Source: Escherichia coli
GTDB lineage: Bacteria > Pseudomonadota > Gammaproteobacteria > Enterobacterales > Enterobacteriaceae
DNA length: 64,000 nucleotides
NCBI RefSeq assembly: GCF_045037415.1
Contig: NZ_CP173438.1
Strand: one strand, 5' to 3'
The first letter of the stretch is position 1. Each line of letters starts with the position of its first letter. The notes below the pieces were generated by a model that made no database searches, was not told where the DNA came from, and was given only the letters and a program-made list of their open reading frames with translations. The position numbers were made by a program, and so were the translations under genes. Below, piece by piece: positions 9,689 to 61,350 of this stretch.

Positions 9689-9931
9689 AAATCATACTGC
9701 CTGTGGATGTGGTGTTGTAACGTTAAATTTTTGTGCCAATCCCTGGGGATGATACAGCGGTATATTTAAACAATTTTAGCGGGAAATACTCCCAACCAGG
9801 CGCGGCGAAGAATAGTTTTTCGATTTACCGCGTAAATGCAGTCAGTATGACAGCACCTGAAGCGCAATTTAAACGCTTATAACGTTTTAAAGCAAGAAGG
9901 GATCTAAAAACCAGAGGTATATAGCGATAAG

Positions 9932-10015
9932 AAATCACCAACCAGTATAAAACACTATTTCAATGAAAAAGACATGGCTAATCATGCGAACAAAAAATCA
10001 CCAACCATTGTAAAA
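9932..10015. repeat. Two 21-bp imperfect direct repeats (AAATCACCAACCAGTATAAAA / AAATCACCAACCATTGTAAAA) spaced 63 bp apart, upstream of brnQ
   Basis: Seen directly: 9932..9952 and 9995..10015 share 18 of 21 positions; they lie in the phoR-brnQ intergenic region. Confidence 0.6.
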
Positions 10016-10038
10016 TCTAACGCCCGTATTTCGACTGC

Positions 10039-10067
10039 AAAGAAAATAAGCCAGCATCGGCTGGCTT
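10039..10067 (-). terminator. Putative rho-independent terminator downstream of phoR
   Basis: Inverted repeat AAGCCAGC-ATCG-GCTGGCTT at 10048..10067, followed on the minus strand by a T-rich run (ATTTTCTTT), 28 bp past the phoR stop. Confidence 0.55.
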
Positions 10068-10094
10068 ATGGCAATAAAAGATGACAAAGGCGAA

Positions 10095-18005: not shown

Positions 18006-18094
18006 TTGCCGGATGCGGCGTGAACGCCTTATCCGGCCTACGGGACTGTTCATTTTGTAGGCCTGATAAGACACGCCAGTGTCGCATCAGGCAT
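18006..18094. repeat. BIME/REP composite element, copy 1 (araJ-mak intergenic)
   Basis: TTGCCGGATGCGGCGTGAACGCCTTATCCGGCCTAC...GTAGGCCTGATAAGACACGCCAGTGTCGCATCAGGCAT: paired, oppositely oriented REP palindromes of the GCCGGATGCGGCG type. Confidence 0.8.
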
Positions 18095-18134: not shown

Positions 18135-18224
18135 TTGCCGGATGCGGCGCGAGCGCCTTATCCGGCCTACCGGACGGCTCACTTTGTAGGCCTGATAAGA
18201 CGCGGCAAGCGTCGCATCAGGCAT
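18135..18224. repeat. BIME/REP composite element, copy 2 (tandem duplicate of copy 1)
   Basis: A near-identical ~90-bp unit 129 bp downstream of copy 1 (TTGCCGGATGCGGCGCGAGCGCCTTATCCGGCCTAC...GTCGCATCAGGCAT). Confidence 0.8.
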
Positions 18225-19280: not shown

Positions 19281-20192
19281 ATGCTGTGGTTCAAAAATTT
19301 AATGGTTTACCGTCTTAGCCGCGAGATTTCGCTGCGTGCAGAAGAGATGGAAAAACAGCTAGCCTCGATGGCATTTACCCCATGCGGCAGCCAGGACATG
19401 GCGAAGATGGGCTGGGTACCTCCGATGGGATCGCACAGCGATGCGTTAACGCACGTTGCCAATGGTCAAATTGTTATCTGTGCGCGCAAAGAAGAAAAAA
19501 TCCTCCCGTCCCCGGTGATTAAACAGGCGCTGGAAGCGAAAATCGCCAAACTGGAAGCGGAACAGGTGCGTAAGCTGAAGAAAACCGAAAAAGATTCGCT
19601 GAAAGACGAAGTGCTGCACTCTCTGCTGCCGCGTGCTTTCAGCCGTTTTAGCCAGACAATGATGTGGATCGATACGGTTAACGGTTTGATTATGGTGGAC
19701 TGCGCCAGCGCCAAAAAAGCGGAAGATACGCTGGCACTGCTGCGTAAAAGCCTGGGGTCGTTACCGGTTGTACCATTGAGCATGGAAAACCCGATTGAAC
19801 TGACGCTGACCGAATGGGTACGTTCCGGCAGCGCGGCACAGGGCTTCCAGCTGCTTGATGAAGCCGAGCTGAAATCGTTGCTGGAAGATGGCGGCGTGAT
19901 CCGCGCGAAGAAACAAGATCTGACCAGCGAAGAGATCACCAACCACATTGAAGCCGGAAAAGTGGTGACTAAACTGGCGCTCGACTGGCAGCAGCGCATT
20001 CAGTTTGTGATGTGCGACGATGGTTCGCTCAAGCGTCTGAAGTTCTGCGACGAGCTGCGCGATCAAAACGAAGATATCGACCGTGAAGATTTCGCCCAGC
20101 GCTTTGATGCCGATTTCATCCTGATGACTGGTGAACTGGCAGCGTTAATTCAAAACCTGATTGAAGGATTAGGTGGCGAAGCACAACGTTAA
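19281..20192 (+). CDS. rdgC: Recombination-associated protein RdgC, 303 aa
   Basis: ORF 19209..20192; internal Met gives [50 protein letters not shown]... Confidence 0.95.
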
Positions 20193-20209
20193 TTGCTGAT
20201 TTACCTTTA

Positions 20210-20248
20210 ATGCCGGATGCGACGCCTGCCGCGTCTTATCCGGCGTAC
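20210..20248. repeat. REP palindromic element downstream of rdgC
   Basis: ATGCCGGATGCGACGCCTGCCGCGTCTTATCCGGCGTAC, a REP-type imperfect palindrome. Confidence 0.7.
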
Positions 20249-20349
20249 GAAGCCACACCAGGAATATAATCGTTAGCTACAGCGGGCAATAATTCTTAGC
20301 GCAGCAATATTATGCGTTTTATGCTGTAACTTGCTCCAGGGGCGTTGTG

Positions 20350-20631
20350 TCATTGTTTTTCCTCAAGCCGGTGACGCGCTTCACTGCGAATTTTTCGCGT
20401 TGCCCCGGTTTTCACTAAATCACGTAACAGCGAAAGATCGGGTTGTTCGACAAATAAGAGTAATGATGGATCCTCTTTTAACCACGCCGTTTTCACATCG
20501 GCAGCCAGCTGTGAATTATTAATAGCCAGCGACCGCTCCTGAGGCTCAGTCAATGTCGTTAACAACAACACCGGGGTATGTGCGTTGTGCAATGCCGTTT
20601 GGCGCAAATGATCATTGCGACTTTGCAGCAA
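20350..20631 (-). CDS. Hypothetical small protein (93 aa), possibly the ykiA-position ORF; may be non-coding
   Basis: The only ORF over 80 aa in the 645-bp rdgC-ppnP gap; translation MLQSRNDHLRQTALHNAHTPVLLLTTLTEPQERSLAINNSQ... has no recognisable domain; overlapped by a 60-aa ORF on the opposite strand. Confidence 0.3.
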   Translation of the reverse strand: MLQSRNDHLRQTALHNAHTPVLLLTTLTEPQERSLAINNSQLAADVKTAWLKEDPSLLLFVEQPDLSLLRDLVKTGATRKIRSEARHRLEEKQ

Positions 20632-20800
20632 TGCACGCCACCATTCATCATCTGATTTATCTTTTATCGTCGCCAGTTCCGCAACAATATCTGGAGATCT
20701 TCGCTGATATTGATATCAACCTTGATGAATTATGAATATATCGGAAATCGAAAAAATCCCAGCAAAGGAAATATTATTATGGGTTAAAGAGAGGACATTT

Positions 20801-20832
20801 CAGAAAAATGCCCTCCCGTTCAAGGGGAAGGC
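20801..20832 (-). terminator. Putative rho-independent terminator downstream of ppnP
   Basis: Minus-strand hairpin GCCTTCCCC-TTGAAC-GGGAGGGC followed by ATTTTT, 7 bp after the ppnP stop. Confidence 0.5.
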
Positions 20833-20838
20833 GAGGAA

Positions 20839-21123
20839 TTACAGATAGCGGCACAGATAAGAGGTGGGTTCGGCAACTTGCAGATGAAACTCGCTGTGAC
20901 CGGGAACATTAAACACCGAACCGGCTTCATACACTTGCCAGTCGGTCGCGTCAGGCAGTAACACATTCAGCGCGCCACTGATTACCGTCATCTCTTCAGG
21001 CTCAGCGGTGCTGAAGGTGTATTCACCTTCAACCATAACACCCACGCTGGCGCGACCAGTGCTGCTGCTGGAAAAGCCGATCGATTTCACTTTGCCGGAA
21101 AAGTACTCATTACTTTGAAGCAT
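20839..21123 (-). CDS. ppnP: Pyrimidine/purine nucleoside phosphorylase (DUF1255, YaiE), 94 aa
   Basis: ORF translation [94 protein letters not shown]. Confidence 0.93.
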
Positions 21124-27914: not shown

Positions 27915-28376
27915 GTCTGTATTTCCTTATCCAAAGTATGGAGAAGTTAACATTATGTTTCACAACTTCATAGTGTCTGGAAGTATTATTTTTATGACAA
28001 AGGAAATACTTTGCGCAAATATTTTTTGTTTGATTACCAGCGAAACGTTTCTCTTATTTAAATAATTACCCACATAAAATATAGGTCTTTAATTATCAAC
28101 CTTTATTATAAATAAAAGTTATGAAATATATTCTCTTCGTTATCTTATAATTAAGAGAAAAAAACTCACCACATGGTCATTTAAGCCAGGAATAAATTAG
28201 CTTCCCGTTCATCATTTTTGTGATCTTGCACACATCTTTGAGATAACGCACTTTCTTCACCAGTACGTTGCTCGCTTTGTCAGCAGAAGATTGCAACATT
28301 CTGTCAGAAGGCCGCGAATCCCCCGTTTTGTCGTGGTAATGTATGCACTTTGTGTTAGACGGGATAGGTTTTTAAG

Positions 28377-29707: not shown

Positions 29708-29966
29708 GGCAGCTCCGTTAACGAAAAACAACATCTTTTCATATTCTGTAACAACTGTCTGTGGTGTAGACAACACTTTCGCAATTGTTAATAAATTTAA
29801 CTTAAGGTTGCTATTTTGTGACTCGCAACGAAGATTCACGCTTCGGGAATATTCCCAACATCAATTTACCATGATTCTGATATTGACAATCTAAATGACC
29901 TGTCAGACTTGCCATAAGCCGCTGGTATCACACCAGAAGAGAAGCAGATGACTTCCGGAGGTTTTT

Positions 29967-30275
29967 ATGGCTGATTTCACCCTGTCAAAATCGCTGTTTA
30001 GCGGAAAATATCGCAATGCCTCTTCAACGCCTGGCAATATTGCCTATGCGTTGTTTGTGCTGTTTTGCTTTTGGGCTGGGGCACAATTGCTGAACCTGCT
30101 AGTGCATGCGCCCGGCGTCTATGAGCGTTTAATGCAGGTCCAGGAAACAGGTCGCCCACGGGTGGAAATTGGTTTAGGTGTCGGCACCATTTTTGGGCTG
30201 ATCCCGTTTTTAGTAGGCTGCCTCATTTTTGCAGTAGTGGCGCTATGGCTGCACTGGCGACATCGCCGCCAGTAA
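29967..30275 (+). CDS. yaiY: Inner membrane protein YaiY, 102 aa
   Basis: ORF translation [59 protein letters not shown]... Confidence 0.9.
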
Positions 30276-30283
30276 GATTTACG

Positions 30284-30317
30284 TTGCCAGATGCGGCCTA
30301 AAACGCCTTATCTGGCG
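30284..30317. repeat. REP-like palindrome / bidirectional terminator between convergent yaiY and yaiW
   Basis: TTGCCAGATGCGGCCTAAAACGCCTTATCTGGCG: inverted repeat GCCAGAT...ATCTGGC with REP-like core. Confidence 0.5.
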
Positions 30318-30333
30318 TGACATTCCTGTTTGA

Positions 30334-37867: not shown

Positions 37868-38392
37868 TTGTCATCCCTCCTCAGGGACGTAATAAGTTGA
37901 TCCATCAATTATCAATGCATAGAAAACATATTATGTTTCGCGTTTACGATTATGCGGCGTTATAGAGGAATGGTTCAATTATTCTTTCCCCTAAGTCCGA
38001 TTGCGGACATATATAAAGCACGTGAACACACACACAGAAATAAATAACAAAAACACAATATTTCAATACGTTAATGAAAGCGTTAATTTTAAAACATAGA
38101 CCATAAAAATATAAAACAGCTAAAACAGACAAATAATGTATCAATAAGCAATGAACTTTAAGTTATTCACTTTTTGAAAACGTCACCAAATCCCCAAAAA
38201 CAATAATCTATGGCTATAAATAAAAATTAAAAATATTTTCAGTGAATATGAAATTATTGCTATTTCTATTACAAAGATGTCCTGACCTCTTTTTCATTCT
38301 CTTCTTGTCAACATCGCGACAACTTTCGTAAAACACACCCAGCCTGCTTCAGGTATACTATGCCCCTCGATTCCACAAACATCAGGCAGACC

Positions 38393-45486: not shown

Positions 45487-45577
45487 ATGCCGGATGCGGC
45501 GTAAACCTTATCCGGCCCACATTTCGCTCGTAAACCGTAGGCCTGATAAGACGCGAAAAGCGTCGCATCAGGCATCT
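45487..45577. repeat. REP/BIME palindromic element cluster (frmB-yaiL intergenic)
   Basis: ATGCCGGATGCGGCGTAAACCTTATCCGGCC...GTAGGCCTGATAAGACGCGAAAAGCGTCGCATCAGGCAT: two oppositely oriented REP units. Confidence 0.75.
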
Positions 45578-47527: not shown

Positions 47528-47578
47528 GCCTACGGGCGAAATGTAGGCCGGATAAGGCGTTCACGCCGCATCCGGCAG
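47528..47578. repeat. REP palindromic element (mhpT-mhpE intergenic)
   Basis: GCCTACGGGCGAAATGTAGGCCGGATAAGGCGTTCACGCCGCATCCGGCAG. Confidence 0.75.
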
Positions 47579-61269: not shown

Positions 61270-61350
61270 GCCTGATGCGCTCCGCTTATCAGGCCTACAA
61301 TTTCAGTGATCTACGTAGGCCGGATAAGGTGTTCACGCCGCATCCGGCAT
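61270..61350. repeat. REP/BIME palindromic element cluster filling the lacA-codA gap
   Basis: GCCTGATGCGCTCCGCTTATCAGGCCTAC...GTAGGCCGGATAAGGTGTTCACGCCGCATCCGGCAT: two oppositely oriented REP units between the convergent lacA and codA stops. Confidence 0.75.

Follow-up and report, generated by a model that had tools for sequence, protein, structure and literature searches.

What does the DNA between rdgC and ppnP encode in Escherichia coli? The question arises from a window of 64,000 nucleotides of one E. coli genome (RefSeq assembly GCF_045037415.1, contig NZ_CP173438.1), in which an initial annotation, made from the letters, singled out this interval as gene-poor, with a 93-aa minus-strand ORF, an overlapping 60-aa plus-strand ORF, and a REP element, at the position of ykiA in K-12. 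A degenerate gene, a small protein, and a non-coding RNA locus were offered as options, and the first proved to be the correct one of the three. Very probably, an AT-rich insert of two genes was once acquired by horizontal transfer between ppnP and rdgC, and the interval is what remains of it as it decays. The basis of this reading is homology, deletion junctions, an intermediate allele, allele frequencies, and relaxed constraint, which are considered in turn below.

The Interval and Its Flanks

The interval is bounded by the stop codons of rdgC (20190..20192; plus strand, ending at 20192) and of ppnP (20839..20841; minus strand, ending at 20839), positions that bear out the limits 20193..20838 and give a length of 646 bp. 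It is 100% identical to the corresponding DNA of strain SK1144 and of an O25b:H4-ST131 strain, and the allele is of the ST131/B2 type. Its content is an old promoter region, the ykiA pseudogene, a 26-codon mini-ORF, and a REP element (Table 1). Both of the ORFs described initially are present in the ORF list, and the K-12 record confirms the position of ykiA; the 26-codon minus-strand ORF had been missed. The claim that this is the only multi-hundred-bp gene-free stretch of the window does not hold, as the iraP-ddlA spacer (~27915..28376) also extends over ~460 bp.

This spacer is without a sizeable ORF, and phoA, iraP, and ddlA can be identified by their translations. A crude scan of the window also picked out 9692..10094, 29861..30333, and 37871..38251, which are 380–470 nt long and lie outside all stop-to-stop frames of 110 codons or more. 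In E. coli 2014C-4423 (L018 1..464), the annotation gives the neighbouring mak gene (fructokinase) as a pseudogene that has an internal stop.

Table 1. Features of the rdgC-ppnP interval, in window coordinates; sites and deletions are listed in the direction of ykiA transcription
Feature	Position	Strand	Remarks
ppnP terminator hairpin	20832..20810	minus	terminator-like site
Upstream region kept from the ancestral large gene	20697..20838	minus	95.7% identical to the DNA upstream of the O157 start codon
Candidate BglJ-RcsB half-site TTTTCTGA	20807..20800	minus	putative; matches the published wwTTCykA core
Candidate -10 CATAAT	20734..20729	minus	putative
Deletion 2a	junction 20696/20697	minus	~1,070 nt lost, including the ATG; leader 1 nt before the ATG joined to codon 357
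18-nt island TCTCCAGATATTGTTGCG (SPDIVA)	20680..20697	minus	codons 357–362 of the intact gene; between junctions 2a and 2b
Deletion 2b	within GATATTGTTGCG, 20691..20680	minus	870 nt lost, in frame, between two repeat copies
ykiA pseudogene	20350..20691	minus	last 113 codons and stop of a 759-aa DUF2773/LRV-repeat protein
93-aa ORF inside the ykiA pseudogene	20350..20631	minus	TTG start, at codon 21 of 113
Antisense 60-aa ORF	20553..20735	plus	spans the deletion junction 20691..20697
ykiD-like mini-ORF	20273..20353	minus	26 codons and stop, MTQRPWSKLQHKTHNIAALRIIARCS; PGAP CDS in 100%-identical genomes
Deletion 1	junction 20323..20331	minus	372 nt (124 codons) of the SF0329 gene lost, in frame
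REP element	core 20212..20244		convergent 3' region common to rdgC and the ykiA-ykiD remnant

The ykiA Frame Is the Tail of a Longer Gene

The 93-aa ORF was said to have no recognisable domain. A profile search refutes this: the Pfam family PF10971 (DUF2773; gathering cut-off, 25 bits) matches it with 147.6 bits (E = 1.2e-43) over the full profile (1–81 of 81, residues 13–93). A search of the four small ORFs against NCBIfam returned nothing beyond noise (E above 0.02, scores far short of the cut-offs). The ykiA fragment aligns to residues 646–759 of intact proteins and is without an ATG or GTG start, a signal peptide, and the N-terminal domains. A full-length member of the DUF2773/LRV family is recognised by its start, its signal peptide, a beta-solenoid, and an alpha-solenoid of ~570 aa; the fragment fails on this definition, and the ykiA frame is a fragment or pseudogene and not a member gene of that family. 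Intact orthologues at the same site, three deletion junctions, and relaxed constraint (the last being suggestive, with 22 changes) all mark it as a pseudogene. In genomes that match the window exactly or almost so, PGAP labels 20350..20691 as a "DUF2773 domain-containing protein", incomplete and missing its N-terminus, and the K-12 record gives ykiA (b0392) as a pseudogene.

The K-12 ykiA-ykiD locus lies at the same ppnP-rdgC site and agrees with the window in gene order and in all three deletion junctions; the two intervals are ~96% identical. The YkiA fragments share 109 of 113 residues, the window differing from K-12 by R35H, A41V, D52E, and P59S (113-residue numbering).

The Intact Two-Gene Module

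In O157:H7, a 2,280-nt gene occupies the same rdgC-ppnP site and encodes a 759-aa protein (WP_120795310.1), the last 81 residues of which are DUF2773. It is followed by a 450-nt gene of the SF0329 family (WP_001303823.1, 149 aa), which overlaps it by 4 nt so that its ATG lies over the stop of the large gene. The two loci are orthologous, with the same flanks, and the remnants in the window are 95% identical to this module at the DNA level; the module is intact in O157:H7, whereas the window is without 1,939 nt and 372 nt of it. Both genes are also present in a divergent E. coli, with a large protein that is 90% identical, and Escherichia sp. E4930 has the large gene only (73% identity), without SF0329. 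The large gene is likewise found without SF0329 in another enterobacterium.

An exhaustive profile search returned 169 relatives of the large protein, of which ~40 are full length (750–820 aa, 18–35% identical). In the parent-family alignment of 44 sequences, nearly all of them full length, LRV_2 was found in 16, HEAT in 14, and LRV in 11. The AlphaFold (AF2) model built on this alignment has a mean pLDDT of 91 and comprises an N-terminal hydrophobic helix, a beta-solenoid (~67–176), and a continuous alpha-solenoid (186–759); the helix, read from MNRINILVICMVLFFMTGNACA, is a putative Sec signal peptide. When the model was compared with the PDB using Foldseek, generic HEAT/ARM scaffolds were found, with PP2A-A, importins, and designed armadillo proteins as the best and TM-scores of 0.12–0.30; PDB sequence searches with both parent proteins gave no significant match. 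The likeness to the alpha-solenoids of LRV (PF01816/PF25591) and HEAT proteins is that of a long solenoid of two-helix repeats. The O157 protein nevertheless differs from these in falling below the HEAT threshold and in having an N-terminal beta-solenoid for which Pfam has no model, and no function is transferable from them. Family searches found no catalytic or toxin domain in the large protein, which is probably an exported solenoid scaffold.

Placed in the parent model, the ykiA fragment would be just the final few helical repeats of a long solenoid. DUF2773 is therefore not a domain of its own but the end of an LRV/HEAT-like solenoid belonging to a probably exported protein of ~760 aa, and its Pfam model seems to be based on pseudogene fragments. 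The beta-solenoid (residues 60–180 of the O157 protein; L005 2031..4310, minus strand) recurs at 30–43% identity in proteins of 120–1,200 aa with quite different architectures and may be an uncatalogued domain family.

The large gene has a G+C content of 42%, compared with 52% for the window, and in other taxa it stands alone in unrelated contexts; among its remote homologues, no conserved neighbour was found across genomic contexts. The G+C content and these solitary contexts fit a horizontally acquired accessory gene. The idea that the long O157-type gene is a recent fusion was also considered and is contradicted by full-length homologues in other bacteria with 25–49% identity.

Three Deletions and the Spectrum of Alleles

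Comparison of the window with the O157, K-12, and other alleles (BLAST segments and alignment) gives three colinear blocks, and the junction sequences reveal three deletions, each between short direct repeats. The copies that flank deletion 2b are GATATTGTTGCG (codons 359–362) and GATATTTTTGCG (codons 647–650), both forms of the solenoid motif GATATT(G/T)TTGCG. The island left between junctions 2a and 2b matches O157:H7 (L005 3225..3242) exactly, at 18 of 18 positions. Together, deletions 2a and 2b cost the large gene its start codon and 646 codons. The intact SF0329 gene has the direct repeat AGTTACAGC at nt 22 and again at nt 394 (positions read in the O157, L012, and MS145 alleles); deletion 1 lies between these copies and has left a single one.

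Such a series of deletions predicts an intermediate, and Shigella flexneri and one metagenomic E. coli indeed carry the same ykiA fragment together with an intact SF0329 gene. The existence of this allele means that the deletions in the large gene preceded that in SF0329. Decay has gone further in other alleles: in one type, a frameshifted SF0329 gene is all that is left, and in another, IS1 has replaced everything. A survey of 5,426 complete genomes of E. coli finds at least 80% of the interval of the window in 4,500 (~83%, K-12 included) and at least 80% of the intact module in 444, mostly of the O157/O55 lineage; roughly 480 genomes have other allele states.

The ancestral module would have consisted of one promoter followed by the gene for the 759-aa exported protein and by the overlapping SF0329 gene (149–151 aa), and it survives in O157:H7/O55:H7 and a few other lineages. 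In a first step, ~1,070 nt would have been lost, beginning immediately ahead of the ATG and reaching codon 356; in a second, the 870 nt between the two copies of the solenoid motif; and in a third, later step, the 372 nt between the two AGTTACAGC repeats inside the SF0329 gene. The proposed outcome is a still active promoter, a ykiA tail of 113 codons that has no start, and a chimeric ykiD mini-ORF of 26–27 codons. The remnant products would be without function, although transcription under a specific regulator and the production of YkiD in K-12 speak against this, and the REP hairpin would end the transcript.

Promoter and Transcription

Salscheider et al. showed that the ppnP-ykiA intergenic fragment of K-12 drives a lacZ fusion, the start of which they mapped by 5'-RACE; BglJ activates the ykiA promoter in an RcsB-dependent manner via a site centred 79 bp upstream (PMC3950696). 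In the window, the candidate -10 and the candidate BglJ-RcsB half-site would fit the published -79 spacing. The upstream region has 11 variable sites in 147 nt among nine strains.

VanOrsdel et al. detected chromosomally SPA-tagged YkiD in K-12 in rich medium (PMC6001520). Transcription in K-12 and the detection of YkiD are both as expected had the deletions spared the ancestral promoter and the ribosome-binding site of SF0329.

YkiD, a Translated Deletion Product

The ATG of the mini-ORF overlaps the stop of ykiA (ATGA), with a Shine-Dalgarno sequence, GAGGA (20364..20360), 6 nt upstream of it. In the K-12 record, ykiD (b4732) encodes a 27-aa protein, and PGAP names YkiD in K-12-like strains. 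The mini-ORF of the window is its homologue: 23 of its 26 residues are identical, and it has the same ATGA overlap and the same GAGGA, the differences from K-12 being R11H, K20R, R25C, and a stop one codon earlier. Its residues 1–10 match residues 1–10 of SF0329, and its residues 7–26 match SF0329 131–150. K-12 YkiD (MTQRPWSKLQR followed by KTHNIAALKIIARRSE) corresponds exactly to residues 1–11 and 136–151 of the 151-aa Shigella/E. coli SF0329 protein. YkiD thus derives from an SF0329-family gene for 151 aa through an internal deletion that kept the frame, 124 of the 151 residues being gone. A Pfam search with the 26-aa and 27-aa peptides gave no match, including to the SF0329 family HMM.

Could YkiD be a functional micro-protein, the rest of the interval serving as its leader? 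This is very improbable. Its translation in K-12, its annotation in the K-12 record and by PGAP, and the conservation of the Shine-Dalgarno sequence and ATG in all alleles compared are in its favour. However, these start signals are the original ones of the SF0329 gene, so ykiD is still translated, and an inherited ribosome-binding site suffices to explain the tagged protein; the peptide itself is the exact product of an in-frame, repeat-mediated deletion, and the lack of a Pfam match also counts against a function. Moreover, it is poorly conserved: eight strains show variation at 4 of 27 positions, with stops that lie one codon apart in different phylogroups, and at least 4 of the 8 variable sites in its 81 nt alter the protein. 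Since YkiD, a validated small protein, is a deletion product, detection of the tagged protein does not show a function.

Selection on the ykiA Fragment

A second possibility is that the DUF2773 ORF of 93 or 113 aa is a functional, stand-alone, small cytoplasmic protein, kept after the deletions. This is very improbable, and most of the evidence for and against it comes from sequence variation, for which omega and piN/piS were estimated by the Nei-Gojobori method. Between intact genes, omega is 0.12–0.19 over the full length and 0.23–0.28 over the last 113 codons. Six alleles of the fragment type have a piN/piS of 0.54 (14 non-synonymous to 8 synonymous changes), compared with 0.02 for rdgC (1 non-synonymous to 16 synonymous) and 0 for ppnP. 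With these 22 changes, 0.54 does not differ from neutrality (p = 0.21), is incompatible with an omega of 0.05, which is roughly the level of the flanking genes (p = 1e-7), and is marginally above the level of the intact gene itself (p = 0.016 against 0.19 and p = 0.09 against 0.25). The variation fits relaxed selection, 22 changes being a small sample, and the value below 1 that favours a stand-alone protein makes a weak residual constraint possible. The density of variable sites is ~10% in the fragment, ~10% in ykiD, and 7.5% in the adjacent non-coding DNA.

The across-strain dN/dS analysis proposed in the initial annotation therefore detects no purifying selection on the 93-aa frame. The same annotation held that the absence of expression, together with the absence of such selection, would speak against both ORFs. 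The two parts come out differently: transcription and the translation of ykiD are documented in K-12, but selection on the 93-aa frame is not detectable.

A stand-alone protein also draws on the 113-codon frame being open in all eight alleles, on the near-fixation of the allele in E. coli, and on the regulated promoter (PMC3950696). However, ~5% of substitutions create a stop, and the probability of the frame remaining open by chance is 0.16–0.29, so that eight open frames out of eight are weak evidence. Against it also stand the six distinct amino-acid sequences of the fragment in eight strains, when PpnP is the same protein in 12 of 12 annotated RefSeq genomes (including K-12, for which there are zero non-synonymous differences); the loss of the signal peptide and of 85% of the parent; the deletion of the locus, or its replacement by IS1, in some strains; and the pseudogene status in the curated K-12 record. 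The only start is the TTG at codon 21. This TTG (20631) has a GGTGG 6 nt upstream of it, which makes a degree of translation of the 93-aa ORF conceivable. Decay of an acquired two-gene insert remains the preferred reading.

A variant of these ideas concerns the near-fixed triple-deletion allele as a whole, which might keep its BglJ-RcsB-controlled transcript because either YkiD or the TTG-started, leaderless 93-aa LRV fragment has gained a role. We consider this very improbable. YkiD would in that case join the first and last helices of the SF0329 protein, itself possibly of an immunity type, and, if a remnant product had indeed gained a role, this would be a documented functional micro-protein born from a deletion scar.

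The REP Element and the Antisense ORF

The REP element noted initially between rdgC and ppnP is borne out. REP elements are extragenic imperfect palindromes of ~35 nt, repeated in the genome, of the GCCGGATG...CTTATCCGGC type, and 20212..20244 has these properties. Its hairpin has a folding energy of -25.5 kcal/mol (z = -4.8), the pattern GCCGGAT-N12-24-ATCCGGC occurs in six copies in the window and in none in shuffled sequences, and the REP-derived Rfam family naRNA4 gives a partial match at 20209..20244. An inverted-repeat search with a 9-nt seed found nothing, mismatches in the stem leaving stretches that are too short. The element is probably a shared hairpin or terminator for rdgC and the remnant transcript. 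Five more REP palindromes lie in the window at 18008..18037, 18137..18166, 45489..45516, 47547..47576, and 61319..61348; the first two are close together downstream of mak and have the appearance of a BIME-like pair (clustered REP).

The 60-aa plus-strand ORF crosses a deletion junction and therefore cannot pre-date the deletion. It is open in the window but interrupted in K-12, where, as in TUM9812, L65, and 2014C (three of the four other strains compared), there is an in-frame stop at codon 40; Pfam and NCBIfam contain no family that matches it. It is a chance ORF, not a gene. A non-coding or antisense RNA encoded in the interval, or a real gene in the form of this ORF, is extremely improbable: some gene callers call the ORF and a promoter-like hexamer pair lies on the plus strand at 20492..20519, but the number of such promoter-like matches is within ~1.5 sd of the shuffled expectation, and Rfam, which gives nothing at gathering score in the whole window, yields for the interval, at E up to 1, only the partial naRNA4 match to the REP element, which gives no support to the RNA option raised initially.

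The SF0329 Family

The second gene of the module belongs to a widespread family. The intact O157 and Shigella proteins match PF25753/NF049912 with 81.4 bits (cut-off 27) and 93.7 bits (cut-off 60), and the family's proteins are 55–68% identical across Proteobacteria, Bacteroidota, Firmicutes, and others. This cross-phylum conservation suggests mobility. In three of seven non-Escherichia contexts (which represent six distinct loci, as two share neighbours), SF0329 genes lie in same-strand arrays of small genes with Imm10, SUKH_6/SMI1_KNR4, or SUKH-3. SF0329 thus shares the array neighbourhood of polymorphic-toxin immunity genes (SUKH/SMI1_KNR4, Imm10), with the difference that a toxin partner was not identified; this association suggests an immunity-type or similar "orphan" role. 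The AF2 model of SF0329 has a pLDDT of 77, and a Foldseek comparison with the PDB gave nothing below E = 0.25. PADLOC and PHROGs returned no matches, giving no support for an origin in a defence system or a phage, and literature searches on SF0329 and DUF2773 found nothing relevant.

It was also considered whether the large protein and SF0329 form a toxin-immunity pair. This idea was rejected as a claim: the large gene occurs alone in E4930 and three other taxa, and its product has a Sec signal peptide, as predicted, and no toxin-like domain. Since the large gene is found without SF0329 in several taxa, the pair is not obligate.

Two of the arrays are of interest in themselves. On a metagenome contig (L022 387..10483), at least ten small, same-strand, unannotated genes surround an SF0329 homologue, among them Imm10, a weak Macro-domain match, and DUF7716, and the array adjoins a phage-type integrase. 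In L023 (900..6945), at least ten small same-strand genes, including SMI1_KNR4/SUKH_6 and UPF0167, surround another homologue. These arrays resemble poly-immunity islands, of which SF0329 may be an unrecognised immunity-type family. A separate observation concerns O157:H7 itself: compared with L012 5277..5732 and P0007, its SF0329 gene (L005 1585..2034) has one extra A in an A-run near the 3' end, which turns the last residues, ...LKIIARRSE in the family-consensus frame, into ...LKNYCPP and leaves a shorter protein of 149 aa. Even this "intact" copy may therefore be slightly damaged.

Implications

The locus is already known, as a curated ykiA pseudogene and a catalogued ykiD, and is a case of ordinary gene decay with no new gene. 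The main value of the analysis is in this correction: a stretch that seemed possibly novel should not be pursued as a new gene. Beyond annotation, it provides a history of three deletions, an account of YkiD as a translated deletion scar, and the identification of DUF2773 with the end of an LRV/HEAT solenoid. The more interesting object lies outside the window: it is the intact module, in which a large protein, probably exported and predicted to combine a beta- and an alpha-solenoid, is encoded together with SF0329.
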